From positions 56,989-120,988 of the forward strand of contig JAPLVK010000021.1 in assembly GCA_026397175.1 (NCBI GenBank): DNA of 64,000 bases. The letters are read 5' to 3'. Under the pieces are notes generated by a model. The model was not told the origin of the DNA and did not search any database. It saw only the letters and a program-made list of their open reading frames with translations. Shown one piece after another: positions 1,720 to 62,313 of the stretch. Source of the DNA: Candidatus Berkelbacteria bacterium. Its GTDB lineage: Bacteria > Patescibacteriota > UBA1384 > DTJR01. The first letter of the stretch is position 1. Every line of letters begins with the position of its first letter. A program made the translations under genes and the position numbers.

Positions 1720-1775
1720 TTTACCCTTTACCCTTTACCCTTTTAACTTTTCACTTTCCCCTTTTCACTTTCCCC
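1720..1775. repeat. Short tandem repeats in the atpB-atpE intergenic region
   Basis: Three copies of TACCCTT (about 1722-1742) and two copies of TTTTCACTTTCCCC (about 1746-1773) on the + strand, which is GGGAAAGTGAAAA x2 and GGGTAAA x3 on the coding strand. Confidence 0.7.
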
Positions 1776-2512
1776 TAATGTATTTCCGCCGTCGCTCCTT
1801 TTATAAAAACCAGTGCCAGCATTGTAAAAACCAAGGCCTGAATAAATCCGACAAAAAGCTCAAGGAAAAAAAACGGAAGAGGCGCGACTAGCGGAACAAG
1901 AAAAGCAACAACAACCAACAAAACCTCTCCGGCAAAAACATTGCCAAAAAGTCGAAATGAAAACGAGATAATTCTAGCAAACTCCCCGATAAGTTCAAGT
2001 ATACCGACAAAAAAATTAATTGGACTCGAGAAGTTTATAAATTTTTTTCCATATTTAACAATTCCGATTGCCGCAACACCAAAGACCTGAACTGCAATCA
2101 TGGTGATAACAGCCAAAGCCAAAGTGGTGTTTAAGTCGGCATTTCCCGATCTAAAAAGCGGGATAAGAGTTGCATGGCCATTTTTAATCGTGTGTAGCCC
2201 GATTGTTCCGACTCCGGGGACAAGGCCGATCCAGTTGTTGGCGATAACGAAAATAAAAATGGTGGCGACGAGCGGGAAATATTTTCTCGTTTTTTCTTCG
2301 TCTTCGATAACACTGTTGGCGGTATTAAACAGAAACTCGATAATTGTTTCAAAAAAATTCTGGATTCCCTCTGGGATTGCTTTAATTTTATCCGTAGCCA
2401 ACACTGCTAGAATAATCAACAAAACGGAAACAACCCACGACAACAATATACTGTTGGTTATAGGCAAGGGTCCGATATGCCCGATTTTTTCGGCGACAAT
2501 AGAAATTTCCAT
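1775..2512 (-). CDS. atpB: F0F1 ATP synthase subunit A
   Basis: 245-aa polytopic membrane protein at the head of the atp operon (…FLELFVGFIQALVFTMLALVFI…). Confidence 0.8.
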   Translation of the reverse strand: MEISIVAEKIGHIGPLPITNSILLSWVVSVLLIILAVLATDKIKAIPEGIQNFFETIIEFLFNTANSVIEDEEKTRKYFPLVATIFIFVIANNWIGLVPGVGTIGLHTIKNGHATLIPLFRSGNADLNTTLALAVITMIAVQVFGVAAIGIVKYGKKFINFSSPINFFVGILELIGEFARIISFSFRLFGNVFAGEVLLVVVAFLVPLVAPLPFFFLELFVGFIQALVFTMLALVFIKGATAEIH

Positions 2513-2736
2513 TAGTCCAATTCCTTAATTTTTTCGATTGCGTCTTTAACCGTTTTTCTTAAAATAAAGAAAGAAATAAAAGCTGCAAATACAATGGCCA
2601 CAATGAATAATTTGGGAGTCGTGTTAAAGCGATGATCGAAGTAGCTTCCGAGAAACGCAAACACAACTAGCGGCAAGGCCGTTTCAATTCCAATTTTACC
2701 AATAAATGACAAAGAAAAAAACAGTCCTTTTTTCAT
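2512..2736 (-). CDS. Small two-TM membrane protein upstream of atpB, possibly AtpI/AtpZ-like
   Basis: 74 aa and hydrophobic. Its position immediately 5' of atpB in the operon is the main evidence. Confidence 0.45.
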   Translation of the reverse strand: MKKGLFFSLSFIGKIGIETALPLVVFAFLGSYFDHRFNTTPKLFIVAIVFAAFISFFILRKTVKDAIEKIKELD

Positions 2737-2818
2737 GTTCTATAGGGATTTATGTCTCCCTAATCAAAATAGCAAAATAAGGTTGGCAAATCAACCTTCT
2801 TCTGATACTCTGGTTTTG

Positions 2819-3472
2819 ATGTTATATATGATGGCTTCGCCAATCGGCAATCTTGATGATCTCACTCTAAGGCAAAGTAACATTTTGTCTTGTGTTGATT
2901 TTGTGTTGGCGGAGGACACCAGAAATTCTAAAAAAATTCTAGACAAACTAAATATCAAAAAAGAACTGATTTCATTTCACGAACATTCAAACGAATCAAA
3001 ACTTTTAACTATTATAGAGATGTTAAAGGCCGGCAAATCAGCAGCGTATTTGAGTGATGCGGGAACTCCCAATATTTCAGACCCTGGGGGAAAACTGGTG
3101 GAGTTTGCTTTAAAAAACGATATTGCAGTTTCTCCAATCCCCGGACCGAGTTCTTTAACTACTCTAATTTCCGTTGCACCCTTTGCTTGTTCAAATTTTG
3201 TATTTTTAGGTTATTTTCCAAAGAAAAAAGGCAGAGAAAAAATTATTGAAAAAATCAAAAATTACGACATGCCGGTTTTCTTTTTTGAATCCCCTTATCG
3301 GATTAAAAAAACCCTCAATCATCTTAAAGAACGCCTCGAGGGCTATCATATCCTAATCGGCCGCGAATTGACTAAAAAGTTTGAAGAAATTATATTTTGC
3401 GATTTAAATAATCCTGGCCTGCAAAACATCACTGAAAAAGGCGAATTTGTGTTTGCTTTAGTCAAGATATAA
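2819..3472 (+). CDS. rsmI: 16S rRNA (cytidine1402-2'-O)-methyltransferase RsmI (tetrapyrrole-methylase family)
   Basis: MASPIGNLDDLTLRQ…LAEDTR…SDAGTPNISDPG motifs. The start is probably the ATG at 2819; the ORF-track start at 2735 lies upstream. Confidence 0.8.
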   Translation: MLYMMASPIGNLDDLTLRQSNILSCVDFVLAEDTRNSKKILDKLNIKKELISFHEHSNESKLLTIIEMLKAGKSAAYLSDAGTPNISDPGGKLVEFALKNDIAVSPIPGPSSLTTLISVAPFACSNFVFLGYFPKKKGREKIIEKIKNYDMPVFFFESPYRIKKTLNHLKERLEGYHILIGRELTKKFEEIIFCDLNNPGLQNITEKGEFVFALVKI

Positions 3473-3533: not shown

Positions 3534-3608
3534 CATCCTTGCACTTGATTTTTTAAATATGTATAATAAAGAAAGTTAACGAACTAATTTATTTTTTGTA
3601 GGAGGATT

Positions 3609-4871
3609 ATGGGTAAGGTGAAAATTCACAAAGGGTTTATCGGTGCAATTACAGCGGTGGCAGTAATTGCTGTTTTGGCCGGTACGGCTATTCGGCTTCA
3701 GTCAATTTCTGCGGATACCACAACCCCTGACGCTACCGGCAATGGTCTTAAGGGCGAATATTTTAAAACCGTGAGCCCGACCGGAACGCCGGAATTTACA
3801 TGCCTGGTTAAGAAATTAGAATTCAACTGGATAGCGACCCAGCCGACATCAGCTCACGATGGCTGCACGCCTCAAACCGGAGCAGTTGGCATTGATAATT
3901 TCTCTGTTAAATACACGGGACAAGTCCAGCCACAATATAGCGACACCTATACATTTTACGCGCTTACAGATGACGGAGTAAAGGTTTGGGTAAATAGTCA
4001 ATTGATAATTAACACATGGACAAATCAAACCAGTTCCGTCGAGTCAAAAGGTACAATTGCTCTACAGGCGGGTAAAAAATATCCGATAAAAATCGAATAT
4101 TATAATGGTGTCGGAAATGCACAGATGCAACTTTTATGGTCAAACTCCCATTCGCTCACAGCGTTCACTTCTCATCAAGTAAAACAAACTATTCCGCAAA
4201 GTCGGCTTTATACTGACTGGACTCCGCCGTCTGCATCAGCCACTGCTTCGCCGTCTACGACAGTCATGACCGAAACATTTAAAGGTGGGACGCAGGGTGT
4301 AAGCAAATACACGGCGCTTTACTTGCCGGCTGATACCACCGCGATTGCTACAAAACAACTTCAAGATGCCGGTCTCACGGTTTGGGCATTCAACAGAAGG
4401 TATGTTGAGGACTGGAATACTGATATTGTCGGCCTTAATCATGGTGTTGGCTACTATGTCGGGAATCCGTCCGGTGTAGATAAGACAGTTACGGTTAATC
4501 AACAAGTGGCTGAAAGTGCATCCAATATTTATATGCGAAAAGGTTGGAATTTACTGGCCAATAGCTCGACGAAAGCCGTGTCGCTTGCCGACTTGAAGTA
4601 TTATCTTAACCCGACCTGTACCCAAACAACCAATGCAAGCGGAAAAATTGTCAACTCCAATTGCACCGTTGGGGCCTCAACAACCCCGATCAGTGATTTA
4701 TTTCAGGGTACTGATGTAAATGCATATCTGGCCTACACGACAATTTACGAGATAAAAAATCCCGAAGCACAAACCGCAAGTGAGGCCTTTGACCAAGTGA
4801 CTGTTACGGCCAGCAACGCCAGTACTCTGACTATTCCCGCTCAAACGATGTTTTGGTTATATATCTGGTAA
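3609..4871 (+). CDS. N-terminally membrane-anchored surface protein with a PA14 domain and a shared C-terminal 'GYYV-GWNLL-FWxY' domain
   Basis: N-terminal TM helix (GAITAVAVIAVLAGTAI). PA14-like block GLKGEYF…FSVKYTGQ…DDGVKVWVN…YPIKIEYYN. The C-terminus (GYYVGNPSG, GWNLLANSS, FWLYIW) is shared with ORFs 4912, 6180, 8141 and 38306. Confidence 0.7.
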   Translation: MGKVKIHKGFIGAITAVAVIAVLAGTAIRLQSISADTTTPDATGNGLKGEYFKTVSPTGTPEFTCLVKKLEFNWIATQPTSAHDGCTPQTGAVGIDNFSVKYTGQVQPQYSDTYTFYALTDDGVKVWVNSQLIINTWTNQTSSVESKGTIALQAGKKYPIKIEYYNGVGNAQMQLLWSNSHSLTAFTSHQVKQTIPQSRLYTDWTPPSASATASPSTTVMTETFKGGTQGVSKYTALYLPADTTAIATKQLQDAGLTVWAFNRRYVEDWNTDIVGLNHGVGYYVGNPSGVDKTVTVNQQVAESASNIYMRKGWNLLANSSTKAVSLADLKYYLNPTCTQTTNASGKIVNSNCTVGASTTPISDLFQGTDVNAYLAYTTIYEIKNPEAQTASEAFDQVTVTASNASTLTIPAQTMFWLYIW

Positions 4872-4911
4872 ATTTAAATTGGGGGTATTGGACATTATCT
4901 AAAGGAGGACT

Positions 4912-6165
4912 GTGAAAAAAATAGGGCTGCAAAAAACATTTATTTTTGGGATAACGGCGGTTGCTCTTGTGGCGATTGCAACTGGTGCCATTATTCGTTT
5001 GCAGTCAATTTCGGCAAGCACGGACACCGCGAGTGTATCATGCGTTGCCGGCTCAACGGCCGTTCAAACCGATTTAAGCGCCGAAGAAGCAAGTTCTTTT
5101 GGTGCATCCGCCAAGGCCTATACAGTTCATACTACTCAAGGGTGGGGCAGATCTAACGGTGGGGACTTTCGGCTGGTAGTGGCGGCGCAAGAACAAAGTC
5201 GTCTAGGTAGTGGGGGACTTGTGCGATTTACCGTCGCTCTTGGCAATTTGAATAATTTTGTTTATGCGGAAAAAACAGGGAGAATAATCCTAAAATTTTC
5301 CAATAGCCAACAAACCATTTTTGAGTACGGTGATCCCCAGCTTGCAACGGGTAAATATTTGATTAAGCAAGCGAACTGGTCGGTTCTTGACTATTCGGTT
5401 TCCGTTAACGCCGAAATGAGATGGGGAACCGGTAATTATCTTCAGGGCTGTGTTTCAAACGCAATCAATTTGCAAGAGGCCTTAGGATTAGTGCCGACAG
5501 CGACATCAACTGCAACAGCGACTGCGACAACATCCCTAACCGCTTCCGCAACCGCAACAACCGTGTCAACTCAAACTACGCTTGATGTTTTAAGCGGCTA
5601 TAACGCGGTTTATTTACCCGACACTCAAAACGCGCTTTTAACCCAGCAATTAAAAGATGTCGGCATGAGTGTCTTTGAATTTAATCATAAATCGTTGAAA
5701 AGTTGGGACAATGATTCAAATGTCTTTTACCATGGAATTGGCTACTATGTCTATAATCCCGGGGCCGAAACCTCCGTCTTGGTCAATTCAGCCCCACAAA
5801 CTCCAGAGACATATTATGATCGTTATATCCAAAACGGTTGGAATCTTCTCTCGAACGGCTCGACAAGTGATAAAAAATTGAGTGATCTGGTTTATTATGT
5901 TAATAATCTTTGCACGATTGTAAGTGATAAAAATGGCAACCCAACCAGTACTGCCGCTTGCGATAGTTTATTGTCTTACAAATTGTCCGATCTTATAACT
6001 TCTAACGCGCAGACAACCCGCGGATATGCCACCTTGTATATAATCAAAGATCCTCACGGTCAAACGGCAACGGACGCCTTCGAGCAAGTGGATGTTACCG
6101 ACCAGAACAAGGATTCAATCGTGATTCCAGCAGGAAAGTTGTTCTGGTTCTATTTATTTGAATAG
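4912..6165 (+). CDS. Paralogous membrane-anchored surface protein (shared C-terminal domain)
   Basis: N-terminal TM helix almost identical to ORF 3609 (AIIRLQSISA). Contains a TATATAT linker, then GYYVYNPGAETS, GWNLLSNGS and LFWFYLFE. Confidence 0.65.
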   Translation: MKKIGLQKTFIFGITAVALVAIATGAIIRLQSISASTDTASVSCVAGSTAVQTDLSAEEASSFGASAKAYTVHTTQGWGRSNGGDFRLVVAAQEQSRLGSGGLVRFTVALGNLNNFVYAEKTGRIILKFSNSQQTIFEYGDPQLATGKYLIKQANWSVLDYSVSVNAEMRWGTGNYLQGCVSNAINLQEALGLVPTATSTATATATTSLTASATATTVSTQTTLDVLSGYNAVYLPDTQNALLTQQLKDVGMSVFEFNHKSLKSWDNDSNVFYHGIGYYVYNPGAETSVLVNSAPQTPETYYDRYIQNGWNLLSNGSTSDKKLSDLVYYVNNLCTIVSDKNGNPTSTAACDSLLSYKLSDLITSNAQTTRGYATLYIIKDPHGQTATDAFEQVDVTDQNKDSIVIPAGKLFWFYLFE

Positions 6166-6179
6166 TTTAAGGAGAAATT

Positions 6180-7742
6180 TTGGCAAACAGGGCTTCAAAG
6201 ATCTATATTGCCGGACTTGCTGCAATAGTTGTTTCTGTTTTGGGAGTTATCACTCTATCAACGGCGTCTTCTCTTGTGCCGAAGTCATCTTCTAATCTTT
6301 TGGAGTCAATTTGTGACGGTCAAAAATCATTTTATCTGCCTTCAGAGCTCTTAAATTTAGAGAAAAAGAAATATTCAAAAAATGCGCGCGGTTTCAAATT
6401 TATTGATAATAATTATGATAGTTTTAGGATTGTGATTGACTTCGGTCGCGCCTCAAAAGACAACAACGAAATTGAATTCGTTCTTTATTTGACCAATTTA
6501 TCTCAAGAAAAAGTTGATCTTGAAAATCTTGGAATAAAACTTGAATCTTCCGATAAATCCCAAATTACTCTTTCGCCAAATGATAATAATTTAGAGCTCA
6601 TAAAAAATCAGACAAAAGTTTTTAAAGCAAAACAAAATTTACCGAAAGACGATCAGGAAAGTTCAATGTCATATGATCTTATTGTTTCAAACAAAAACAA
6701 TAATGTCTGCACTGGTAAAATTCCCGAAATTGTAAAAATTGAACCGAAAAATCTTGATAATTTCAATGTCTTACAAGCAGACAACTTGGCTGTTTCGTCA
6801 AGGGAATTTGGGGATTTTGAAATTCCACCCGGTTTTAGCCCGATTGGTTTTTCCGATTTTCGACAATTGAAGCCATTTAAAGATAAAGGCCTAACAATTA
6901 TTGGTTATAATCTCAAAGGGCACGAATGGACAATTATTTCCAAAAACAATGATTTTTTGGCCGAACCGGGTGTCGGTTATTTTGTTTTGAATCCAACCGA
7001 AAAGACGATTTTGGTTGATGCCGGATTTCCCTTTTTCACTCCGGACGATATTGCGCGAAATACAGTCCGAAAGGGCTGGAATCTTATCTACAACGATACA
7101 GGAAATAATGCTTCCCCAAAAGAAATTAGTATCTCGATTTATCCGGGTTATAATCAATCGCGGGATTTTGAGGTCTCTTCCTATTCTCTACAGGATCTAA
7201 TTGACAAAAAAATTGCTTCAGGTGATATTTATATCGTTGATCCCGGAGATGCCTCGGTTTTAGGCCGAAAAACCGCACTTTCTTCCTCGACATTTTTAAT
7301 CCCTCAAGATGGTGTTTTCTGGTTTTATTTGTTTGATGAACCGCAAAATCTGGAGTTGAAAGTTCCTAATTTTCAATTTGAACTAACAGGCGGTGGCGAT
7401 ACATATAAATCGGGCGATTTTGTGCCTTTAACATTTAAAATTACCAATAACGATAACAAGTCGCATCAATTGCTTTTACCCGGCATCAAGGATCCCTGTT
7501 TTCTCGGCCTAACTGTTCTTAATTCATCAAACAATGTTGTTTATAATGACTTAGAAAATAAAACATGTCCTTTGTGGCCGTCAATTGTTGAAGTTTCACA
7601 AGGGGCGAAAGAAGAGTATAATTATTCTTGGGCTATACCAAAAAATTTGAAAGGCGATTTTACTTTAAAGGCCTATTTTAATTATTCTCGTCTCAATTCA
7701 TCGAATATGTTATATAATGAAAGTAAGATAAAAGTTGAATGA
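6180..7742 (+). CDS. Paralogous membrane-anchored surface protein (shared C-terminal domain plus extra C-terminal module)
   Basis: TTG start 5 nt after AAGGAG. Motifs GVGYFVLNPTEK, GWNLIYNDTG and VFWFYLFDEP are followed by a roughly 130-aa extension. Confidence 0.6.
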   Translation: MANRASKIYIAGLAAIVVSVLGVITLSTASSLVPKSSSNLLESICDGQKSFYLPSELLNLEKKKYSKNARGFKFIDNNYDSFRIVIDFGRASKDNNEIEFVLYLTNLSQEKVDLENLGIKLESSDKSQITLSPNDNNLELIKNQTKVFKAKQNLPKDDQESSMSYDLIVSNKNNNVCTGKIPEIVKIEPKNLDNFNVLQADNLAVSSREFGDFEIPPGFSPIGFSDFRQLKPFKDKGLTIIGYNLKGHEWTIISKNNDFLAEPGVGYFVLNPTEKTILVDAGFPFFTPDDIARNTVRKGWNLIYNDTGNNASPKEISISIYPGYNQSRDFEVSSYSLQDLIDKKIASGDIYIVDPGDASVLGRKTALSSSTFLIPQDGVFWFYLFDEPQNLELKVPNFQFELTGGGDTYKSGDFVPLTFKITNNDNKSHQLLLPGIKDPCFLGLTVLNSSNNVVYNDLENKTCPLWPSIVEVSQGAKEEYNYSWAIPKNLKGDFTLKAYFNYSRLNSSNMLYNESKIKVE

Positions 7743-8140
7743 TAATGAACCAAAGTAGCAGAAATTCCTTGATTGCCATATCTGTCCTTGCCGGCGCCAT
7801 AATCTTAGTCGGATCAATTATTTATAAATCAAATTTTACCATTCAGGCAAGCTCCGAAACAACCCCTGCAACGCCCAACAAATCCGTCCCCTTAAAGACC
7901 GGTTGGAATTCTCTGACAAACGGCCCCAAGACCGCAACCTTACAAAGTAGAATTATCACGATTAACGGAAGTTTGATTTCGATCGAAGAAGCAAAGACAA
8001 GGGGAGTGATTGATAGCGTTGCAAGCACAAAAGATGGTACAATATTAAATGAGAACAATAAGATATTGCCGAAAGAGGGCTTTGAAATTTTTGTTAAAGA
8101 CATCACCTTGTCGCCGGCTTTTTATCCGGAGGAAATTTAA
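7739..8140 (+). CDS. Small secreted or membrane-anchored protein within the surface-protein cluster
   Basis: N-terminal TM or signal segment (LIAISVLAGAIILVGSIIY) and a GWNSLTNG motif. Confidence 0.45.
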   Translation: MIMNQSSRNSLIAISVLAGAIILVGSIIYKSNFTIQASSETTPATPNKSVPLKTGWNSLTNGPKTATLQSRIITINGSLISIEEAKTRGVIDSVASTKDGTILNENNKILPKEGFEIFVKDITLSPAFYPEEI

Positions 8141-9256
8141 TTGAAAAATTTTATGGGATTGGAAGAAAAAGTCAAAAATCATTCGGCCTTGTCGAAGAAA
8201 AAGTACGCCACCGTTGCTGCTATTGCAATTGTCTTGGGGCTTGGTCTTGTTGCTGGCGGTGTCTTGTTAAATTCAAGTCAAACCCAAATTTTTGCCAGCA
8301 CCGACACTCCGCCGACTCCGGCAATTCCAACTCGTTCTGCTCCGCCAACACCTCCGATCCCATCAAGGACGGGAAACTTTTCGTTTGCCGCTGGCTGGAG
8401 CATGATTTCGGGTGATGCGCTATATGGATATGATTTAACCAATTTCTTAAAGGCCGGGCTGACTCTTTATAGTTTTAACGATCCAAAGGTGGCAAATCGC
8501 GATTGGACAGTTAAGGGTTTGGTTGCCGATACAAGCTGTGCAGCAGGACAAAGTTGTCCTCCGACACCGAGTTCTCCAACCAATACATCAGTCATATTTT
8601 ATCCCCAGCCACCATTCGGTTATTATGTCTATAACCCCGGGACCGCTGAAGCTAAGGTTGATCTAAAACCGGGCAGTGCCCCTGATTTATCAAATCAGAT
8701 GGTGGCACGGGGCTGGCACACACTCTATTGGCCGGGCGAGGCGACAACTAAAGATGAACTTCTAAAAAATATCACTTTAAAATATGCAGACGGAACAATA
8801 CTGACTGCAGCGCAAGCGGTCGCAAGCGACCAACACAAGGCAAGTATCGAGATTTATGTGGTTACCGATGAACACTCGATTGATGTTACTGCCTCTTCGA
8901 AACTTTTGACTTCTACCGATTCAAGCGCCGAGATCAGTAAAATCCCCAAAAACAGTTATTTCTGGCTTTATTTGAGACGAACACAGTATCGGGTAACGGA
9001 TGTATATTTGGCCAGCCAAAGCATTTCGACCGCCGAAAAAGAAGCGATTGATGTTTGGCTTAAGGCGAATAATTATACTGACTGTGGAGACGCAGCCGGA
9101 ACAATTTACACCGGCAGCAGTTGTCTATTTGACGAAGCAACCAACACAACGCGTGATAAATACGAATATCTTGTCAATAAATTCCCAGATAAGCCATGGT
9201 TTGCAGCATCAACTCCGCCAACTCCGGCCACTCCATCGGCAACTTCTACGAGCTAA
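8141..9256 (+). CDS. Paralogous membrane-anchored surface protein with Pro/Thr-rich linkers (shared C-terminal domain)
   Basis: TM helix, repeated PPTPAIPTRSAPPTPPIPS, then FGYYVYNPGTAEA, GWHTLYWPG and YFWLYLRR. Confidence 0.6.
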   Translation: MKNFMGLEEKVKNHSALSKKKYATVAAIAIVLGLGLVAGGVLLNSSQTQIFASTDTPPTPAIPTRSAPPTPPIPSRTGNFSFAAGWSMISGDALYGYDLTNFLKAGLTLYSFNDPKVANRDWTVKGLVADTSCAAGQSCPPTPSSPTNTSVIFYPQPPFGYYVYNPGTAEAKVDLKPGSAPDLSNQMVARGWHTLYWPGEATTKDELLKNITLKYADGTILTAAQAVASDQHKASIEIYVVTDEHSIDVTASSKLLTSTDSSAEISKIPKNSYFWLYLRRTQYRVTDVYLASQSISTAEKEAIDVWLKANNYTDCGDAAGTIYTGSSCLFDEATNTTRDKYEYLVNKFPDKPWFAASTPPTPATPSATSTS

Positions 9257-9259
9257 CAA

Positions 9260-10102
9260 ATGAACTCCAACAAAGTAATTGATACGCATTGTCATTTGAA
9301 TTTCAAATCATTTCAGGATGATTTTATTTTAGTTGCTAAAAAAGCACGGGAGTCGGGAGTTGAAAAAATAATTATTCCCGGTTCGGATTCGCAGACATCT
9401 TTTCAGGCCCTTGAAAACGCAAAAGCAATTAATCTCGCATTGTCATCCCGACCAGGTTTGGGGGTGGAACCCAAACCTCAGAAAATGTGGAGGGATCTTC
9501 CCCTTTTTGCCTACGCGGCTGTTGGAGTTCATCCGATTCACACCGACAGGAACGGATTCGAAACGATCGAGAAATTGGCGGAACTTCCGGAGGTAGTAGC
9601 GATCGGCGAAACGGGGCTCGATCAATTTCATAATCGAGATAATATCGCCGAACAGTTGGAGTTGCTCGGTAAACATGTTGATCTGGCACTCAAGATAAAT
9701 AAGCCGGTTATTTTTCACAATCGAGAATCGGATGCAGAGTTTTTGACATTTCTTAAATCGCTGCAGAAATTGCCGAGAGGTGTTTTCCATTGTTTTTCAA
9801 GCGATCATCATTTTGCAAAAGAAATAATCGAAATGGGATTTATGATTTCATTTACGGGGAATATAACTTGGGGTAATAAGAAGCTGAAAAAAGTAATAGA
9901 GAGAACGCCGCTTGAACGCATTATGATCGAAACCGATTCACCCTATCTTGTGCCGGAACCATTTAAATCTCAAGGCGTTGAACGAAACGAGCCGGCATAT
10001 GTTCTGGAAGTTGCCAAGAAAATTGCCCAAATTAAAAATATTAAGTTAGAAGAAGTTTGTAGCCAAACCACCCAAAACGCGATTGAGTTTTTTGGACTTT
10101 AA
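9260..10102 (+). CDS. tatD: TatD-family metal-dependent hydrolase (DNase)
   Basis: VIDTHCHLNF…GVHPIHT…AIGETGLD…IFHNRES…FHCFSSD…ETDSPYL, which are TatD signature residues. Confidence 0.85.
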   Translation: MNSNKVIDTHCHLNFKSFQDDFILVAKKARESGVEKIIIPGSDSQTSFQALENAKAINLALSSRPGLGVEPKPQKMWRDLPLFAYAAVGVHPIHTDRNGFETIEKLAELPEVVAIGETGLDQFHNRDNIAEQLELLGKHVDLALKINKPVIFHNRESDAEFLTFLKSLQKLPRGVFHCFSSDHHFAKEIIEMGFMISFTGNITWGNKKLKKVIERTPLERIMIETDSPYLVPEPFKSQGVERNEPAYVLEVAKKIAQIKNIKLEEVCSQTTQNAIEFFGL

Positions 10103-10323: not shown

Positions 10324-11145
10324 CTACTGTCGTGCCAAAGGGTCAACCAACCCGGGCATCATGTCAATGCGATAACCGACCCACTCGAGTCGGGTAGCCG
10401 GCTGTACTTCATAGAAACGCTTGCTGACCAGACGGTCCACAGTCAGTTCCGCGAGGATGCTCGGTGATTTCTTGTTATCACGCATCCCGTAGAAACTGTT
10501 GCGAATCCGCCACAACATATGGTCAATGTGTACGCGATGCTCATCGGGGTTTTCCCCGGGACCGGAAACAATGTGTGCAGCGAGGTTAGAGATCTCGCCA
10601 AAGACGGGATGGCTATCCACGACATCATCACAGGTGTTGAGGGTTTCGCTGGTGAGTAGATCCGCCAAAAAGTCGGGCGGATAGAGCGCGTATCTGTTCC
10701 CGCTATCTGTGAAGTAATGTTTCCGATCCCTCGGAAGGTAGATCCAGGCGAGCGATTCGAAGACGCCGAGCAGCATGCCAGCCAGATACTCGGTCCCCCA
10801 GAATTTTGATGGCCACTTGTCGCTTGGTTCGATGATGGGATTGCATAGTCCGCGCAGCACTTGCCAATCGTTTGTGGCAACAGTGCACATAAGGCACAAG
10901 CCGGCGACATCCTCCGTTTCGTTTGTGGCCAGCATCATGCTCGTGATTGCTTGCTCGACCGGGAACTCATCGAGTGATACTGCATCCCAACCATCGCGCA
11001 GCGCCTTGAACACGCTAGTTAACAGCGCTTTGCCTTGTGGGTCTTGTGCTAGCGTTGTGTCCCCACTGGTCTCGTAGGCGTTCACCAGCTCGACCAGTGT
11101 TTCGACTCCACCTTTGCGACCAAACTGTCTCACATCCATGGTCAT
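10324..11145 (-). CDS. Hypothetical protein in a GC-rich island (no recognisable domain)
   Basis: 273-aa ORF at about 55-58% GC, in a locus of about 35% GC, with its own terminator and promoter region. I recognise no motifs in it. Confidence 0.55.
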   Translation of the reverse strand: MTMDVRQFGRKGGVETLVELVNAYETSGDTTLAQDPQGKALLTSVFKALRDGWDAVSLDEFPVEQAITSMMLATNETEDVAGLCLMCTVATNDWQVLRGLCNPIIEPSDKWPSKFWGTEYLAGMLLGVFESLAWIYLPRDRKHYFTDSGNRYALYPPDFLADLLTSETLNTCDDVVDSHPVFGEISNLAAHIVSGPGENPDEHRVHIDHMLWRIRNSFYGMRDNKKSPSILAELTVDRLVSKRFYEVQPATRLEWVGYRIDMMPGLVDPLARQ

Positions 11146-18215: not shown

Positions 18216-18340
18216 TTTGATTTTTTCTCCATATAAAGTCATAATTAATCTTTAGGGGAGGAAAAATTAAATTTTCTCGTGTCAGAAATTATTTAAGTAA
18301 ATTCTCAAAACGATCTCTTTTTACTTTTGCTTCTGTATTT

Positions 18341-19405
18341 GTGTTATTTTTGGCTTCCGGCGCTGTTGTTTTAGCCCAAACCGGTCATTTCAAAATTCTG
18401 GCTGATGTTATAGCTCCAAAAGCGGCTTTAGACAATGGAAGTTTACAAGTTTATATCAAAGATAAAGATACTCTTAAACCAGCATCAGGATCTCTTTCTG
18501 TCGAGTTATGGCAAGACAATACTTATATTACGAGATCTGCGGCTATTGCTTCGGAAACGAGCACAATTGCCTATTTCGGAGGTCTTTCAATCGGAACAAC
18601 CTACTATGTTAAATTAGAATCACCAACGCAAATGCCGGTATGCATCGGACAAAGTGTAGTTATTGCCGATGGTCTGCCGACTAAAACAGAACTTATATCA
18701 CCTTGCCAAACAGAATCCAAAACGCCAGAACCCAACAAGACCCAAACAGCAACTCCGGCTCCTACTTCGACCGGTTCTATTATTCCCTCCACCAAATTTG
18801 TCCTAACCGGCACGGTCTATGGCGGAGATGGTGAAACAACTCTACTCGCTGGTGCTACAGTTGACCTTTGGAATATCCCTGCTAACAAAAGCGTCTCTTC
18901 TGTCCAAACGAAGCCAGATGGAACATTCGAACTGCCAGTTGATTTACCATCCGGTAAAACGGTTGTTTTCCCGAAGGACTACTTTTTGCAATTCACAGCT
19001 ACAAATTACACTTCATTCGCAATCAACCCGCTCTCACAGAAATTCCCCAGCAATAATTTCGATGGAGGAAAGTCATACGATATAGGCAAGGTTCATCTTT
19101 ACAAAATACAATCAGCAACTCCAACGCCGACTGCGACAGCTACAATTGTTAAATCAAATCCAGATGTTACTCCAACGGCGGCTGTTGTAGTAAAGAAGTT
19201 TGATGTAGTCGGTTATATCGGATCTGAAACCCCGGAATTTTATCTTGATGGTATCAACTTGCAGCTTGTTATGAAGAGAGGCACCACAACCCATAACTAC
19301 AAGACAGTTACAACTGCCGAGGCGATAGATTCTCGAACCGGAGAGCAAAAAGTTAATTCTTGTTTGCCGATGCGACATACACTCTTATTCCTAAACTTAA
19401 TTTAG
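18341..19405 (+). CDS. Secreted protein with carboxypeptidase-regulatory-like beta-sandwich; probable N-terminal part of a split metallopeptidase gene
   Basis: Signal-like N-terminus. The open frame extends upstream to about 18245 with no ATG. The 3' end overlaps the next ORF by 46 nt in another frame. Confidence 0.5.
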   Translation: MLFLASGAVVLAQTGHFKILADVIAPKAALDNGSLQVYIKDKDTLKPASGSLSVELWQDNTYITRSAAIASETSTIAYFGGLSIGTTYYVKLESPTQMPVCIGQSVVIADGLPTKTELISPCQTESKTPEPNKTQTATPAPTSTGSIIPSTKFVLTGTVYGGDGETTLLAGATVDLWNIPANKSVSSVQTKPDGTFELPVDLPSGKTVVFPKDYFLQFTATNYTSFAINPLSQKFPSNNFDGGKSYDIGKVHLYKIQSATPTPTATATIVKSNPDVTPTAAVVVKKFDVVGYIGSETPEFYLDGINLQLVMKRGTTTHNYKTVTTAEAIDSRTGEQKVNSCLPMRHTLLFLNLI

Positions 19406-22296
19406 ATTTTTCTTCTCCGATTGATATCAATTCTCTGTTTAAAATTGATATCACTTCCCAAGACCTGCAAAACCACGATGGAATCTATTATAAATTTAAA
19501 GAAATTGATTTTGACGACAATATGGCTATTGATGTCTCGGTGAACGATGAGAATGGACCGTTGCCGAAGTCAACAGTTGAGGTTTCTTCTCAAGGATGTT
19601 CAGTCCTTAGATCAAAAAGCCAGATGACCAATAATGATGGCGAAACCAATTTTCTTAATGCTGATTTATTGTGGTTTTTTACTTATTTAAGATTACCGGG
19701 GAGCAAGTGTTTGCCCTATATTGATATCAAGGTTTCAAAAAATGGATATATCACTAAGGTATTAAACTATGATGTCGAGAACCTAAAAAGCGATTCGTTT
19801 AGAGTGAATGGTCAAGTGTCAATAGGAGTAACCCTTCAGAAAACAAAACCAGATCAAAAAGGCATTATTGGTACAGTACTGGATGCCGATAAAAAACCTA
19901 TTGAGGGAGCAGATGTCTATTTGTGGCGAGACAAAGCTATCGGCTTGCCATTATATCTAAAACACTCTGATTCTTCGGGTGGATTTGAATTTGGAGATAT
20001 CACGGGTGGTAACTACATTGTTTCATCATTTCATAAGGATTATTTATCGACCGAAAACAGCAGGCGATTCATAAAATTACGAACAGGTGAAGCGCAGGAA
20101 CTTGAGCTGGTTATGACTAGCTATCCTCACGATTTGGCGGAAAATATCTATTCGTTACCGGTAACTGCGTTTGAGCGCGAGACACAGACACTCGTTTCAG
20201 ATTTAAGTGTCGAATTTGATCAAGGAGGTAAATCAGAAAAGGTCTCTGTCAATTCCGGACGACTTTATATTAATGTAAAACCTGGTGCTTTGAGAGTAAA
20301 AGCTACGCGAAGTAACGAGACACTTACATCTCAAGTAGAAATCCCATCTGATTTTAATGCGTTGAGCGATACGGATAAGCAAAATATTTACGATAAACTT
20401 ACTTTTTATTTTTCTAATCTATCGCACGATACCGTTGACCGTCAAATCATAAAAGTTCTCGATCAAAAAAATCAACCGGTTGCAAATGCCCAGGTGGTTT
20501 TCTCTTATAATGACATCTTGCCTTTCTTCTTGAGTGGAAAAATGGCTGGGCAAACAAACAACAATGGTATTATCAATCTGCCAAACGACTTTCAATATGT
20601 AGATATTAACGATCTTCCGATTGCTATGTCTGTGGTCAAAAAAATAACACAGTTTAAACTCGGTCTTCTCGGGACCTTATCCCTAAAAGTCAAACGCCCA
20701 GATAGCGAAACTATCTATCCGTTTACAGAGCAAGTAAAGGGCGCAGATAAAAATTATGAAATTATTTTAAAAATTCCTGTCCTTTCTGAAAACAGTTCTG
20801 CAACCAGCCATTCTATCAATGTGCAGATCGCTGATCTAATAAAATGGGCTAGTGCAAGCGCAGACGACCTTAAGCCATTATATCTTGAGAAGAAAACAGG
20901 CAAAAATTGGGAAAGAGTTCAAATTCAGCCATCAATCCAAGAGGAGTCGATTTTAAATGGATTGTATAAAAAGCGTTTCAAATCATACCCTCATCCCGAA
21001 AAGGGAATTTATCGAGCGAGGATGGAGGGGAGCGATTACATCAGTGAGGAAAAAGTTTTTGATGATAAAGATGATTTGGGATTCTCGATCAATGGCTGTG
21101 TAAATAATGGAAATTACCATAAAGTTGATTATCCGGGAAATATATTCTTTGTTATGGGTTCGGGCGAATACACGGCTTATCAAAATAATGCAGCGCGAAA
21201 AAAACTTTTTGATAAAATTGCCGGTGACTTGTTGCTAGCCAAGAATCATTCTGTTGATGTCGGGCCATTGGTGGTAATTTGGACAGGCGATATGATCGGC
21301 ATCAATGCTTTTATGACCGACCCGGTTGCAACATGCATGGGAGTAAATAATGCAAGACCGATAAAGTTTACAAGCGAGTTTTTAGCTCTTGCCGAGAAGG
21401 GAAATATGGACTATATTATCAGCCCGGTCGTTATTCATGAGTATGGGCATCAGGTATATGAAGTTCTGAAGACCCAAAATCCGGATTTTTATAATCGTTG
21501 GGTAGATTTGTTTAAAAACATTAAGGGTTCGCAAAATAGTTGTGTGTGGGATCGTCTTAAAGAAGGGAATATTTGGTCAAATTATGTCGGCCTGGGTGGG
21601 CATCCAGACGATGACTATGGAGGTACGCTACCAGGACATGAAATGTTTGCCTCGATGTATTCTTCTTATTTTTCAATTAATTTTCATAACCGGCTTTTGT
21701 CAACAATAAATAATTATTCATCCGGAGAATGCCAGAACACTCTCGCTTATATGTGGACTTTATTTTCGGAAAATGTTGGGGAGCTTGTGAGTGGAGACAA
21801 GATTGCGTTCCAACCTTATGGTGGCGGAGTTAACCGTGCCCGATATTCTTTTTCTCAAATCAAAAGCGGAGCTTGGCGAGCGGATAGGTTTGGTGATCTG
21901 GGTTTATCCGGACAGGTTTCTGTAATGTATCAAAAATTTATCGCTCCGCTTGGAAGTAGTACTCGTACGGCGGCAATCGAAGCTAAGCTCGCGATAATAA
22001 ATAAATTTATTGATCTCAAAACGACAGGACGCCCAAAAGGAAATATTGAGGGCGTTGTGGTTGATAATCAGAACCTCAAAGTTCGTAGAGCTATCGTTAA
22101 AATCGGTCAGAAATATGCGGTTACCGATGATTCTGGCAGATTTTCGATAATTGGTATAGCGGAGGGAAGCCAGAATATATCGAGTATTATATTATTTAAT
22201 ACCGGTGGAAGTTATTTAGTTCAAAAACCTGCCGGCAAGAAGATTGTGATTCAAAAAGACAAGACGGTCTTTGTTAATATTAAAGTAGACAAGTAG
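19360..22296 (+). CDS. Large zinc metallopeptidase (HExxH) with carboxypeptidase-regulatory-like domains; lacks its own signal peptide
   Basis: VVIHEYGHQVYEV HExxH motif. CarboxypepD_reg-like segments (GTVLDADKKPIEGADVYLW…; GNIEGVVVDNQNLKVRRAIV…DDSGRFSI). TTG start with no obvious RBS. Confidence 0.55.
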   Translation: MFADATYTLIPKLNLDFSSPIDINSLFKIDITSQDLQNHDGIYYKFKEIDFDDNMAIDVSVNDENGPLPKSTVEVSSQGCSVLRSKSQMTNNDGETNFLNADLLWFFTYLRLPGSKCLPYIDIKVSKNGYITKVLNYDVENLKSDSFRVNGQVSIGVTLQKTKPDQKGIIGTVLDADKKPIEGADVYLWRDKAIGLPLYLKHSDSSGGFEFGDITGGNYIVSSFHKDYLSTENSRRFIKLRTGEAQELELVMTSYPHDLAENIYSLPVTAFERETQTLVSDLSVEFDQGGKSEKVSVNSGRLYINVKPGALRVKATRSNETLTSQVEIPSDFNALSDTDKQNIYDKLTFYFSNLSHDTVDRQIIKVLDQKNQPVANAQVVFSYNDILPFFLSGKMAGQTNNNGIINLPNDFQYVDINDLPIAMSVVKKITQFKLGLLGTLSLKVKRPDSETIYPFTEQVKGADKNYEIILKIPVLSENSSATSHSINVQIADLIKWASASADDLKPLYLEKKTGKNWERVQIQPSIQEESILNGLYKKRFKSYPHPEKGIYRARMEGSDYISEEKVFDDKDDLGFSINGCVNNGNYHKVDYPGNIFFVMGSGEYTAYQNNAARKKLFDKIAGDLLLAKNHSVDVGPLVVIWTGDMIGINAFMTDPVATCMGVNNARPIKFTSEFLALAEKGNMDYIISPVVIHEYGHQVYEVLKTQNPDFYNRWVDLFKNIKGSQNSCVWDRLKEGNIWSNYVGLGGHPDDDYGGTLPGHEMFASMYSSYFSINFHNRLLSTINNYSSGECQNTLAYMWTLFSENVGELVSGDKIAFQPYGGGVNRARYSFSQIKSGAWRADRFGDLGLSGQVSVMYQKFIAPLGSSTRTAAIEAKLAIINKFIDLKTTGRPKGNIEGVVVDNQNLKVRRAIVKIGQKYAVTDDSGRFSIIGIAEGSQNISSIILFNTGGSYLVQKPAGKKIVIQKDKTVFVNIKVDK

Positions 22297-23093: not shown

Positions 23094-24371
23094 ATGACCG
23101 ATGATTTAAATGTACAAAAGAAGGACGAAACCCCAATGGGGCCAAGGGAAAATGGTTTTGGTAATCAAATAAGCGATACGCCCCAAAAATCGCCACTCGA
23201 GGAAGCAAGCTCAACGCCGGATTCAGCTCCCGAAACGCCGGGTTTGGGTGTTTCTCAAAATCAAGATATAGCTGAACCGCAAGATTCCCCAAGTGACCAA
23301 ACTCCCTCCGAAGAAACCGCCCAAGCTCCCGACACCGACGAATTTTTAAAAAGTATTCTTGACGAAAAAAATCCTCCTGCCGAACCAGCCCCGAGCGCCG
23401 ATTCTCAACCGGTTTCTTCGGAGCCGCCAAAGACCGCAGAGACCCCAATCGTTCCGGAACTTCACGATGCGCCCGCACAGAACGATAATTCTATGGGTTT
23501 AAATCAGCCCACACCTCCCGAAGCGCCGACCCCTCAAGCTTTAACTCCCGAAACCCCAGCTCCAGGCGATTCTGCCTTGCCGCAACCGCCCGATCTTTCC
23601 ACACCCGATACCGGTATGGCTCAAGAAGCACCGATAGCACAAAGCCCAAACGAACCACCCCAAGAGCCCAAGATCAAAGATGAAATCGGGAACTTGGACG
23701 GAATCGTTTCAAGTCAAAAAGATAACCCAGACAAACCCGCATCAAGTGATATTTTTTCTGCTCCCAAAAATCCCGGGACTCCTAAATCGTCTTCTCTAAA
23801 ATTAATTCTTTTTGTCGGAGTCGCACTTATTGTTGTTGCTGCCGGCTATATTGGTATCAGCAAGTTATTCTCAAAACCAAGCACAACTACGGATTTGACA
23901 TCTTTGTCGGGTCAGACATCTGTGGCAGAAATTACCCAAAGTGCTACTGCAGCTATCGCGACACCCGATCAACAAAGAAAAGAGGACTTAAAGACCATCC
24001 AGCAGGCGCTTCTTAATTATTACGCTGCTCATGGGCAATACCCAATCGCAGCCGAAATTGTAATGTTGGGCACCTCGGGAAATATTCTGGAAAAGGAGCT
24101 GGTCCCGTCATATCTTAATAAAATTCCTGCCGACCCGATAGCCACCAAAAATTACGCCTATAAATCAGACGGCACGACATTCATTCTTTCGGCGGTTTTG
24201 GATGACGCGACGGATTCGGAGGGTGTCGTCGAAGGTGGACTGACTCTTTATAAAGTTACAAACTCCACAACCACAACCCAAGCGGCAAGCTCAACTGGCA
24301 CAACTGATTCGAGTTCAAGCGTAGATAATGCTTCATCTTCTACCTTGCCGACAAGCGCAACAGGCCTTTAA
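23094..24371 (+). CDS. Membrane protein with long Pro/acidic disordered N-terminal region, central TM helix and type IV pilin-like C-terminal domain
   Basis: TM LILFVGVALIVVAAGYIGI. C-terminus DLKTIQQALLNYYAAHGQYP…YAYKSDGTTFILSAVLDD resembles pilin or pseudopilin globular domains. Confidence 0.5.
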   Translation: MTDDLNVQKKDETPMGPRENGFGNQISDTPQKSPLEEASSTPDSAPETPGLGVSQNQDIAEPQDSPSDQTPSEETAQAPDTDEFLKSILDEKNPPAEPAPSADSQPVSSEPPKTAETPIVPELHDAPAQNDNSMGLNQPTPPEAPTPQALTPETPAPGDSALPQPPDLSTPDTGMAQEAPIAQSPNEPPQEPKIKDEIGNLDGIVSSQKDNPDKPASSDIFSAPKNPGTPKSSSLKLILFVGVALIVVAAGYIGISKLFSKPSTTTDLTSLSGQTSVAEITQSATAAIATPDQQRKEDLKTIQQALLNYYAAHGQYPIAAEIVMLGTSGNILEKELVPSYLNKIPADPIATKNYAYKSDGTTFILSAVLDDATDSEGVVEGGLTLYKVTNSTTTTQAASSTGTTDSSSSVDNASSSTLPTSATGL

Positions 24372-25877: not shown

Positions 25878-27635
25878 ATGGCGGAAAATAAAACCTGCAA
25901 ACAGTGCAAAAAAGAATTTGTCGTCACCGACGATGATCTAGCATTTTATAATAAAATCTCACCAACCTTTGATGGGAAAGTTTTTGAAATTCCCGCGCCA
26001 ACTTTGTGTCCAGATTGCAGAAACAGGCGGCGGCTCGGTGTACGGAATGTAACAAACCTCTACAAGAGGAAATGCGATCTTTGCGGCAGAGAAATGGTTT
26101 CAATGTATTCGCCCGATAAAACCGATCTAAAGGTTTACTGTTCTGATTGTTGGTGGTCTGATAAATGGAGCCATTCTGATTTTGCCCAAGATTATGACCC
26201 CAGTAAAAGCTTTATTGAACAAATTACCGAACTAAAACAAAAAGTACCGGCTCCTGCGTTGATGCATGCCGGCGATGAAAACAGTGATTATATAAATCTA
26301 GCCAATGACAACAAGAGTTGTTATTTGGTTTTTCTCTCTGGCAGAAATGAAGATACTTATTATGGTTATTGGTCGGAGGATAGCAAAAATTGCTGTGATG
26401 TTTCATACAACTCTTTTTGCGAGCTTTGCTACGAAGGAATAAATTTGGGTCGATGCTACAACGCTCACTGGGCTATTATGTGTCGCGATTGCCGCGATTG
26501 TTATTTCATCGAGGACTCATCAAATTGCTCTGACTGCATAATGTGTAGCCGACTTGCTCACAAACAATATTGTTATAAAAACAAACAACTTACGAAAGAA
26601 GAATACGAAATAATAAAAGCAGAGCTGATAGCCGGGCTCGAAACCAAGCTCGATGAATACAAAAAAGAATTTCACGAAATAGTAATTACTCAACCGAAAA
26701 AATACTCGCAAATTTTGAGATCTGAAAATTGTACAGGGGACAATATTTTCGATTCCAAAAATTGTCAACATTGTTTTATGACTTCGATGGCAGAGGACTG
26801 CAAATTTTGCTATGACTTAAATCGCGGCAAGGACTCTTATGATATAACCGGTTTTGGTATTCCAATCGAGCTTGTTTACGAATCGCAAAATGTTGGTTTG
26901 GGGTCGGGGCGTTGTGCTTTTATTAGCTTTGCTTATCAGCTCGCCGATTCTTATTATAGTGAGCACTGTTATTATTCAAAATATCTATTCGGCTGCGTTG
27001 GAGCCAAAAACCACGCTGAATATTGTATTTTGAACAAGCAGTATACAAAAGAAGAATACGAGAAGAAAGTTGCTGAAATAATCACAAACATGATGGCGAC
27101 CCCACTCCGCCCAGGCTCCGCGGGGCAGGGATGGGGTGAGTTTTTCCCTGCTGGTTTCTCTTCGTTTGGCTACAACGAAACGATGGCAATCGAATATTAC
27201 CCGATGCCCAAGGAAGAAGCCGAAAAACTCGGTTATTTTTGGTTTGAACAAAATAGCGATATTGAATTTAATGGCGTATCTTACGAACCGTTGCCAATTG
27301 AAAAATATAAAAACGATGAAACGGAGAGGCAGAAACTTTTGGGTGGAGTATTAAAATGTATCAAAACTGGTCGTCCATTTAAAATTATGCCTCAAGAGCT
27401 TCTATTTTATATCAAAAATAATCTTCCAATTCCAAAAGTGCATTGGGAGCAGAGAATGACCGACCGGCTGAATTTGATCAACCGAAATATACTCTATCAT
27501 CGTCAGTGTGACTGTGAGCAGGGTGGCCACGATCATGACGGAAAAAAATGCGAGAGAGAATTCGAGACAACCTACTCGCCAAATCAGCCAGAAAAGGTAT
27601 ATTGCGAGAATTGTTACTCGTGGGAAGAAAAATGA
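25878..27635 (+). CDS. Cys-rich protein, tandem paralog 1 (multiple CxxC zinc-ribbon-like motifs, internal repeat)
   Basis: 585 aa. N-terminal CKQCKKEF…CPDCRNRR…CDLCGRE…CSDCWW. Repeated C…C…LNKQYTKEEYE blocks. C-terminal CDCEQGGHDHDGKKCE…CENCY. Confidence 0.6.
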   Translation: MAENKTCKQCKKEFVVTDDDLAFYNKISPTFDGKVFEIPAPTLCPDCRNRRRLGVRNVTNLYKRKCDLCGREMVSMYSPDKTDLKVYCSDCWWSDKWSHSDFAQDYDPSKSFIEQITELKQKVPAPALMHAGDENSDYINLANDNKSCYLVFLSGRNEDTYYGYWSEDSKNCCDVSYNSFCELCYEGINLGRCYNAHWAIMCRDCRDCYFIEDSSNCSDCIMCSRLAHKQYCYKNKQLTKEEYEIIKAELIAGLETKLDEYKKEFHEIVITQPKKYSQILRSENCTGDNIFDSKNCQHCFMTSMAEDCKFCYDLNRGKDSYDITGFGIPIELVYESQNVGLGSGRCAFISFAYQLADSYYSEHCYYSKYLFGCVGAKNHAEYCILNKQYTKEEYEKKVAEIITNMMATPLRPGSAGQGWGEFFPAGFSSFGYNETMAIEYYPMPKEEAEKLGYFWFEQNSDIEFNGVSYEPLPIEKYKNDETERQKLLGGVLKCIKTGRPFKIMPQELLFYIKNNLPIPKVHWEQRMTDRLNLINRNILYHRQCDCEQGGHDHDGKKCEREFETTYSPNQPEKVYCENCYSWEEK

Positions 27636-43186: not shown

Positions 43187-43246
43187 AATCCTGAACCCAC
43201 CACCTTGAAAGAAGGAGTGGGCAGGCAATAAAAGGAGGTGCTGACC

Positions 43247-43880: not shown

Positions 43881-44244
43881 TTCTCTGGTATTTTGGGGCT
43901 TTGTGCCCCCTGTATCCGAGCCCCCCTTGTCCCTGTGACCCTTTGAAATCCCGCCTTTGGCGGGAAAGTAGAAGGGTCACTTTTCTGTTAAAATAAAAAT
44001 GAAGTTTGTGAAAGGCAACGGCTAGCCTTCGACCTTGCTCGGGCCAGGCGGCTTTTGCCCACAACTTTAGATTTTTGTTACAGAGAGTTGCTTTGGGTAC
44101 GCCTTGAGCGAGAATGGTTGCAAAAATCTCAAAAAATGAAGAGAATCGGTGCTTCCCATCAAGAGATTTTAGATCTCAATTAATATTCAGCGGAGCGATG
44201 TTGTATTTTGCCCGCAGTGATTATGAACGGCGGGTGGCACAAAC

Positions 44245-44353
44245 TTGGGCGGTCAACTGCAACTGGAACGCCGACAACGGCTGGAACCTCAACGCCAATC
44301 CGATCTCTAATCCGAACAGTTGGAACGCTGACAACCAGGTCTTCTCCCACGAC
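44245..44353 (+). repeat. DGR template repeat (TR), adenine-rich AAC-codon template
   Basis: aac tgc aac tgg aac gcc gac aac ggc tgg aac ctc aac gcc aat ccg … AAC-rich. Matches the VR except at adenines. Confidence 0.85.

Positions 44354-62279: not shown

Positions 62280-62313
<34 letters not shown>

Follow-up and report, generated by a model that had tools for sequence, protein, structure and literature searches.

In a 64,000-nt stretch of a Candidatus Berkelbacteria genome (GenBank assembly GCA_026397175.1, contig JAPLVK010000021.1, positions 56,989 to 120,988 of the forward strand; hereafter the window), the region 3609-9256 encodes a compact array of proteins with extracytoplasmic hallmarks, four of which share a collinear C-terminal domain of about 175-190 amino acids (aa) with a fifth protein encoded 29 kb away. 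We refer to the array proteins, in gene order, as A, B, C, S and D, to the distant protein as E, to the shared domain as the tail and to the part preceding it as the head. The tail occurs in one copy per protein behind heads of many unrelated types, and it appears to represent a new domain family, of which we found no description in the published literature. The reading that we tentatively prefer, while regarding it as somewhat short of probable, treats the tail as a surface-retention or docking (or assembly) module for signal-cleaved exported proteins, whose heads would be the cargo.

A shared C-terminal domain

Pairwise BLASTP comparisons aligned all ten combinations of A to E over the C-terminal region, with 141 bits for A and B and 29-47 bits for the other pairs. 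An earlier note on this DNA had proposed a collinear C-terminal block common to these five proteins, which these comparisons and the profile searches described below bear out, although its length, given there as ~130 aa, has to be corrected to the 175-190 aa stated above. The motifs that the note took to be invariant are conserved only, with GYFVLNP in C, AYYLFEP in E and RGWHTLYW in D. In a MAFFT alignment of the five blocks, 11 positions are invariant (W38, Y51, P56, G81, W82, Y149, I178, P179, F184, W185 and Y187 in the numbering of the A domain), and most of them are Trp, Tyr, Phe, Gly or Pro. In the family profile, too, the conserved positions are Gly or aromatic, and there is no conserved polar or catalytic set, which points to a non-enzymatic module and agrees with our preferred reading. 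One of the best-conserved segments of the domain is its first strand (xGFNxI), and aromatic residues account for 12.5% of the tails versus 9.2% of the heads. Cysteines mostly number zero or two per domain, consistent with extracytoplasmic disulphide pairs.

A profile hidden Markov model (HMM) built from the five domains was compared with 1.84 billion representative proteins using HMMER; it retrieved 192 family members (clusters at 50% identity) at E ≤ 1e-3 and 118 at E ≤ 1e-10, with the window's own B, A and C at the top of the list. Applied to the 64-kb window, a 62-sequence profile matched exactly five open reading frames (ORFs), those of A to E. Throughout the family, the domain is present once per protein. 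Its end coincides with the last residue or falls one short of it in 73 of the 148 complete members and lies no more than 16 residues from the C-terminus in ~109 of them, the exceptions being the C-type proteins, all orthologues of which carry a 131-140-aa extension, and the long D-type proteins (70-90 aa). A single terminal copy combined with many unrelated heads is what one expects of a module that sorts or anchors proteins irrespective of their cargo.

Neither Pfam nor NCBIfam produced a tail match in the five proteins at E ≤ 1, Pfam found no family common to more than one of 62 domain sequences, and a comparison of the domain with PDB sequences gave no match. The tail also failed to match the Pfam/NCBIfam models for CWB2, SLH, LysM, GW/SH3b, choline-binding, LPXTG, PEP-CTERM and related modules, the C-terminal domain (CTD) of the type IX secretion system (T9SS) and dockerin. 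Thus, the profile search suggested in the earlier note yielded a small family and no known annotated domain, and the view of the domain as uncharacterised holds.

The structure of the A domain, whose prediction the note had likewise proposed, was modelled with AlphaFold2 from a 62-sequence alignment. The model is confident (mean predicted local distance difference test score, pLDDT, 92.1; predicted template modelling score, pTM, 0.87; all five models at least 90.7) and beta-rich, with ~13 beta-strands and two short helices. Foldseek comparison of this model with the PDB and BFVD found no neighbour (best E = 0.2, TM-score at most 0.2) and, in the PDB, no link to chaperone-usher pilins.

Two further ideas about the domain were set aside. 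An internal duplication, in which the halves GW..., GYYV and GWNLL..., FWxY would correspond to each other, was rejected after hhalign aligned the halves over nine columns at 10% probability. Electrostatic binding to the cell wall is unsupported, given domain isoelectric points (pI) of 4.8-9.2 with a median of 6.8.

Heads, linkers and N-termini

The heads reach ~1,150 aa and fall into many unrelated types upon BLAST clustering, with a bare Pro-rich stretch in their place in D-type proteins. The head of A is a PA14 domain, a module of lectin type (PF07691, residues 90-180, 83.8 bits versus a cut-off of 24, E = 1.3e-23), as the earlier note had recognised; the match concerns the head only, not the tail. 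The Pro/Thr linkers that it described are also visible, as Thr/Ala/Pro-rich stretches in A, B and D. B and C are paralogous over their whole length, and their heads align (hhalign, 96% probability, E = 3.5e-9) with both conserved cysteines included, C44 and C180 being invariant in the B-type alignment. Pfam searches of the B head, the C head, the C extension and the D extension gave nothing above threshold, the C extension showing a weak immunoglobulin (Ig)-like (BsuPI) signal, and the B-type profile had no match in the PDB. As a separate observation, two metagenome B-type relatives (P0198 and P0199) contain a Dockerin_1 domain (type I, E about 7e-8) that separates the B/C head from the tail, which hints at docking of the cohesin-dockerin type somewhere in the lineage.

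Among 50 long family members, Pfam identified PA14 in six and the GH123 N-terminal domain in two, together with single cases of a papain-family protease, a beta-helix, GHL15, GH42, GH141, CBM4_9, Laminin_G_3, a purple-acid-phosphatase N domain and fn3. For E, a profile of the protein and seven relatives matched the PDB entries of the beta-N-acetylgalactosaminidases 8K2F, 8K2L and 8K2J (E = 6.8e-6 to 4.5e-3) over ~85 residues only, and the GH123 N-terminal domain was found in two E-type relatives, not in E itself. Because of this profile match, the head of E is probably a distant relative of GH123-like beta-N-acetylgalactosaminidases, and E itself is probably a glycosidase and not an adhesin. 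Since enzymes and carbohydrate-binding modules make up most of the family's heads, the tail behaves as a generic display or assembly module and not as the adhesive part.

The same heads bear on another possibility, namely that the tail is itself a new carbohydrate-binding module (CBM) that aims enzymes and lectins at a polysaccharide, for example host wall glycans, and not at the producer's surface. Most identifiable heads are carbohydrate-active or carbohydrate-binding, and the tail, which lies C-terminally behind a linker like many CBMs, is beta-rich with conserved Trp and Tyr and the raised aromatic content noted above. However, a protease of the papain type and a phosphatase-type module carry it as well; it is never N-terminal, internal or repeated, as CBMs often are; it matches no Pfam CBM family; and the best-conserved members, D, B and C, carry no enzyme and belong to a core operon with coupled translation. 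We therefore consider this possibility very improbable.

The N-termini bear on how these proteins are retained after export. Nearly all members start with a basic n-region followed by ~19-21 hydrophobic residues, a short spacer and an [IVF]-x-A-[DS]-[TSV] motif, exemplified by ISADT, IFADS, IQASS and IFAST. The [IVF]-x-A ending fits the -3/-1 rule of signal peptidase I. The same ending (...FKILA|DV) is found in an unrelated large secreted protein of the window (18245-22296), and the [IVF]xA[DS] ending is missing from the window's HtrA and S41 proteases, which are expected to be membrane-anchored. Judging from these sequence features, the segment that the earlier note described as an N-terminal transmembrane (TM) anchor is rather probably a Sec signal peptide that is cleaved.

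The note's own model was that uncleaved N-terminal TM helices anchor the proteins and that the heads or the distal constant tail bind a host cell. The hydrophobic segment is indeed long, at about 19-21 residues, and each orthologue group has a conserved n-region of its own. Adhesins are among the proteins that carry PA14 domains, and cultivated CPR (candidate phyla radiation) bacteria are all episymbionts (PMC11623550). In D, moreover, a Pro-rich stretch, typical of wall-spanning stalks, directly follows the helix, which is most easily understood if the N-terminus anchors the protein. Nevertheless, the motif after the helix obeys the cleavage rule and is missing from the anchored proteases of the window, many heads are hydrolases, and the true hypervariable protein of the window is a separate target (43238-43996) of a diversity-generating retroelement (DGR). 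The array itself is syntenic, with one-to-one orthologues and conserved heads, and so does not form a varying repertoire (see the next section). Taken together, these points make TM-anchored adhesins improbable.

A type IV prepilin motif (G|F-x-x-x-E) was also sought: A- and B-type proteins have (K/R)GF ahead of the helix but without Glu at +5, nothing of the motif is present in the C, S, D and E types, and no pilin Pfam family was matched. Interpreting the (K/R)IQ(R/K)GF sequence of A/B-type proteins as YSIRK-like or prepilin-like has no Pfam support; this sequence is confined to one orthologue group and was therefore treated as orthologue conservation.

A conserved operon beside the ATP synthase genes

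The array consists of five tightly packed ORFs on the plus strand. The earlier note had correctly located four tandem ORFs and a distant fifth but overlooked S, which is a conserved fifth gene of the array with an N-terminal signal like those of its neighbours. Protein A (3609-4871, 420 aa; domain HMM E = 4.5e-43) comprises a putative signal peptide of approximately residues 1-35 (...SISA|DT), the PA14 head, a Thr/Ala/Pro linker and the domain at residues 233-420 (nt 4305-4868). Protein B (4912-6165, 417 aa, GTG start), detected by both BLASTP and the domain HMM, has a predicted signal peptide, the B/C head of ~150 aa with two invariant Cys, a Thr/Ala linker and the domain at 228-417 (nt 5593-6162). 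Protein C (6180-7742, 520 aa, TTG start), also matched by the domain HMM, has an N-terminal hydrophobic signal, the B/C head, the domain at 217-389 (nt 6828-7346) and a 131-aa C-terminal extension. Protein S (7739-8140, 133 aa) has a signal ending in ...FTIQA|SS, followed by an 85-aa part. Protein D (8141-9256, 371 aa, TTG start; MCX6809854.1) has a long conserved n-region (LExKV), a hydrophobic segment ending in ...IFA|ST, a Pro-rich stretch, no head, the domain at 84-283 (nt 8390-8989), an extension that contains Cys, and a Pro/Thr tail. Orthologue alignments back the start codons of B and D. Protein E (38306-40825, plus strand, 839 aa; MCX6809881.1) has a signal (...KIFA|DS), a head of ~600 aa and the domain at 642-827 (nt 40229-40786). 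The database annotation of all B, D and E family members that were looked up, including D itself, is "hypothetical protein".

The gaps between the genes are small: 40 nt between A and B, 14 nt between B and C, a 4-nt overlap (ATGA) between C and S, and 0 nt between S and D. A gene for a TatD-family hydrolase (9260-10102, plus strand) starts 3 nt after D and is probably co-transcribed with it. On the other side, an rsmI-type methyltransferase gene (2735-3472, plus strand) separates the operon from a divergent ATP synthase operon, to which atpB (1775-2512, minus strand) belongs. A putative promoter and ribosome-binding site, recognised in the sequence at 3539-3605 on the plus strand, would consist of a -35 element TTGCAC (3539-3544), a 17-nt spacer, a -10 element TATAAT (3562-3567) and AGGAGG (3600-3605). 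The -10 element is perfect, while the -35 element is weak, with three of six matches, and for this reason the promoter is missing from the consensus-scan list; its description as very strong in the earlier note is unsupported.

The 85-aa part of S (KTGWNSLTN ... ILPKEGFEIFV) looks like the second half of the tail. The similarity to the domain profile is weak (hhalign, P = 1.6e-4, 50% probability), and one S orthologue was also matched by the domain HMM. S lies before D in all 20 metagenome loci with upstream sequence.

A search with the D-type alignment revealed relatives in five species genomes (Berkelbacteria, candidate division WS2 ADurb.Bin280, two metagenome-assembled genomes (MAGs) labelled "uncultured Saccharibacteria" and one further MAG) and on 24 further metagenome contigs. 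All ~30 loci have the same layout: the divergent ATP synthase operon, rsmI, B-type, C-type, S, D-type, tatD. The ATP synthase operon is one gene away in every locus with enough sequence, and tatD follows D in 19 of the 20 metagenome loci with downstream sequence. The variation concerns copy number: B-type genes occur once or twice (with or without PA14), a C-type gene is usually present, and D-type genes occur once or twice. As a side observation, a 273-aa ORF without a Pfam match (10324-11145, minus strand; local GC content 0.46 versus about 0.38-0.40) breaks the otherwise syntenic tatD-typA region.

The named sources of the family are all CPR bacteria, namely Candidatus Berkelbacteria, candidate division WS2 and MAGs labelled Saccharibacteria, and the earlier view of a lineage-restricted, extracytoplasmic family is supported. 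No named Saccharibacteria or Mycosynbacter protein appeared in the sequence searches, in which the protein-search matches were almost only close relatives of the D and B types. D is the best-conserved member between genomes, with 35-45% identity in the domain and 39-53% over the whole protein. In B-type proteins, identity between genomes is 37-39% for heads versus 28-35% for tails; because heads are as well conserved between orthologues as tails, they are not hypervariable. The notion of a variable head and a constant tail thus stands as an architecture among paralogues but not as fast variation, and it is a matter of domain shuffling among paralogues, not of diversifying selection. Likewise, the array is a set of one-to-one orthologues in a strictly syntenic operon, which, together with synteny in ~30 loci and heads that are mostly enzymes or carbohydrate-binding modules, contradicts the expanded adhesin repertoire proposed earlier.

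Several other features of the window were recorded. The gene directly upstream of E (37079-38266, 40-nt gap) encodes what its sequence indicates to be an HtrA-type serine protease with a PDZ domain. The large secreted protein mentioned above (18245-22296; CarboxypepD_reg, Big_1), which lacks the shared tail, is split over the overlapping frames 18245-19405 and 19360-22296, which may reflect a frameshift or an assembly error; its gene keeps its position after the S41 protease gene in related loci. The DGR (43238-45751) comprises a reverse transcriptase ORF (44729-45751; RVT_1, E = 1.1e-27), a 71-nt template repeat (44278-44348) and a variable repeat (43805-43875) inside the ORF 43238-43996; the repeats are 85% identical, each mismatch corresponds to an A in the template, and the hypervariable protein is unrelated to the surface family. 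The 16S rRNA gene (61153-62851) measures 1699 nt versus a 1533-position model and so contains inserted sequence, and a LAGLIDADG homing-endonuclease ORF (63134-63631, E = 2.4e-21) lies ~280 nt downstream of it. A 425-aa ORF (23094-24371) has an acidic, Pro/Ser-rich N-terminal half and a weak match to a G-like domain of type-II secretion and type-IV pilin systems (T2SSG, E = 3.5e-4, just at the cut-off). Finally, two tandem paralogous ORFs (25878-27635, 585 aa, and 27548-29359, 603 aa) overlap by 88 nt and have in common an N-terminal zf_Tbcl treble-clef zinc finger.

The role of the tail and known surface systems

According to the retention reading, the proteins would be exported by the Sec pathway as modular chains of a signal peptide, a paralogue-specific head, a flexible Thr/Ala/Pro linker and one beta-rich tail domain. 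The signal peptide would be cut at [IVF]-x-A|[DS], after which the tail would hold the protein on the producer's own envelope while the head (lectin, glycosidase or protease) does the work. As binding partners of the tail, a wall polymer and the core proteins of the operon are both conceivable. The operon, which can be written as rsmI / (A) B C S D / tatD, would form the conserved and probably abundant core of the surface system, with D as a head-less form on a proline-rich stalk and S as a half-domain accessory made in step with D. A, E and similar genes would encode cargo that uses the common tail as a handle. In agreement with this, enzyme-headed members, E among them, are scattered outside the operon, as CWB2 or SLH proteins are scattered outside the core locus in Firmicutes (Willing et al. 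2015, PMC4973711).

Several points weigh against retention. The pI values of the tail vary, whereas binding to an anionic wall polymer would call for a uniformly basic module. The tail is single, whereas known wall-binding modules are usually repeated. Searches of IMG/VR with D-type and B-type patterns found no phage or viral relative of the tail, although one might be expected for a wall-binding module. In D, the Pro-rich stretch right after the helix speaks against signal cleavage; moreover, as the best-conserved member, D consists of the "anchor" without cargo, which suits a structural subunit better than an anchor.

This last point leads to a second explanation, in which the proteins would assemble into a Pam-type surface filament specific to CPR bacteria and the tail would be a pilin domain whose open groove is filled by a strand of the next subunit. 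B, C and D would build the fibre, A and E would display heads, and S would be a cap or a minimal chaperone. The structures of two Pam filaments of the Saccharibacterium Ca. Mycosynbacter amalyticus have been solved (PamA and PamB, WP_260763287.1 and WP_260763280.1; PDB 25PZ and 25QA), and their pilins are very abundant hypothetical proteins with paired cysteines that are restricted to CPR bacteria (Troman et al. 2026, bioRxiv 10.64898/2026.03.03.709456). Each pilin combines a Sec signal with a beta-sandwich N-terminal domain, a linker strand that is donated, and, as its more conserved part, a C-terminal open barrel of truncated Ig-like type (10.64898/2026.03.03.709456). The operon, consistently located next to ATP synthase genes, encodes several paralogues (PamA, PamB, PamE and PamT), including a form that contains the C-terminal domain only (PamT), and the PapD/FimC-like chaperones PamC and PamD and the terminator PamR each have a signal peptide and a C-terminal TM helix (10.64898/2026.03.03.709456).

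The array resembles this description in many respects: it belongs to a CPR-restricted family, its proteins show a signal-like N-terminus, a head and a C-terminal domain in this order, cysteines are paired, and an operon of paralogues lies one gene from the atp operon in every locus. In addition, D is head-less and comparable to PamT, the first tail strand is among the best-conserved segments, and the gene junctions suggest translational coupling. By contrast, the window and the flanks of the ~30 related loci yielded no protein that combines a signal with a C-terminal TM helix, one small polytopic membrane protein excepted, and Pfam detected no PapD-type family among the operon proteins and their neighbours, so the locus is without chaperones of the membrane-anchored PapD-like kind and without a PamR-like terminator. 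The long low-complexity Thr/Ala/Pro linkers differ from the single linker strand of Pam pilins, and the many head types, enzymes included, are encoded away from the operon. The confident model lacks a Foldseek match to chaperone-usher pilins or to any PDB chain, and the absence of named Saccharibacteria or Mycosynbacter proteins from every sequence search also speaks against a relationship. The likeness is thus one of published description, with no sequence link found; PDB sequence searches and Foldseek comparison with the PDB likewise gave no connection with Pam, although the Pam entries may not be released there. On balance, a Pam-type filament is a strong rival of retention, and the main one, but is itself rather unlikely. 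A related and somewhat more speculative idea, which we consider doubtful, is that in Berkelbacteria-type CPR bacteria the rsmI-tatD operon encodes an undescribed fibre or coat, a surface polymer that would assemble without PapD-like chaperones and display enzymes and lectins via the tail. This polymer would be built from a domain without a solved-structure neighbour, would occupy the position of the Pam locus in Saccharibacteria and might use S to cap or prime D.

The array matters because CPR bacteria depend on cell contact, while their surface machinery is almost wholly annotated as "hypothetical protein". It offers a conserved, probably highly expressed module of four to five genes, a confidently modelled new domain family and, in the combination of an [IVF]xA|[DS] signal ending with the C-terminal domain, a recognition rule for the exported surface proteome of the lineage. 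Through its position by the atp operon, it may also be linked to the Pam pilus, the sole experimentally solved CPR-specific filament. If this link is true, the Pam system would gain a new class that follows another assembly logic; if it is false, the tail would be a new kind of surface-anchoring module.

The principle of modular exported proteins with a common C-terminal display or assembly module is already known, while the tail domain itself appears to be new. In the chaperone-usher tip adhesins FimH and PapG, an N-terminal receptor-binding (lectin) domain is followed by a C-terminal pilin domain that plugs into the polymer. Unlike the array proteins, these adhesins need a periplasmic chaperone and an outer-membrane usher, and their small incomplete Ig pilin fold has no structural match to the tail. 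The dockerin enzymes of cellulosomes and the T9SS CTDs provide a second parallel, in that a single cargo-independent module occupies the extreme C-terminus of unrelated secreted enzymes and lectins. The tail differs in that it matches neither Dockerin_1 nor any T9SS sorting domain, and, to our knowledge, CPR bacteria are generally regarded as lacking the outer membrane that T9SS requires. In the SLH-domain proteins of Bacillus, a common anchoring module is likewise combined with differing functional domains. The CWB2 family of Clostridioides difficile follows the same plan, with paralogues that join protease, adhesin or other domains to a common wall anchor, several of them encoded at the core surface-layer locus (PMC4973711). 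CWB2 and SLH modules form sets of three tandem repeats, which lie at either protein end and bind defined anionic wall polymers, whereas the tail is single, ~180 aa long, C-terminal and variable in charge and has no sequence similarity to them. With one anchoring module, differing functional domains, a core cluster with scattered paralogues and Sec signals as common traits, the CWB2 family is the closest working analogy for the tail.

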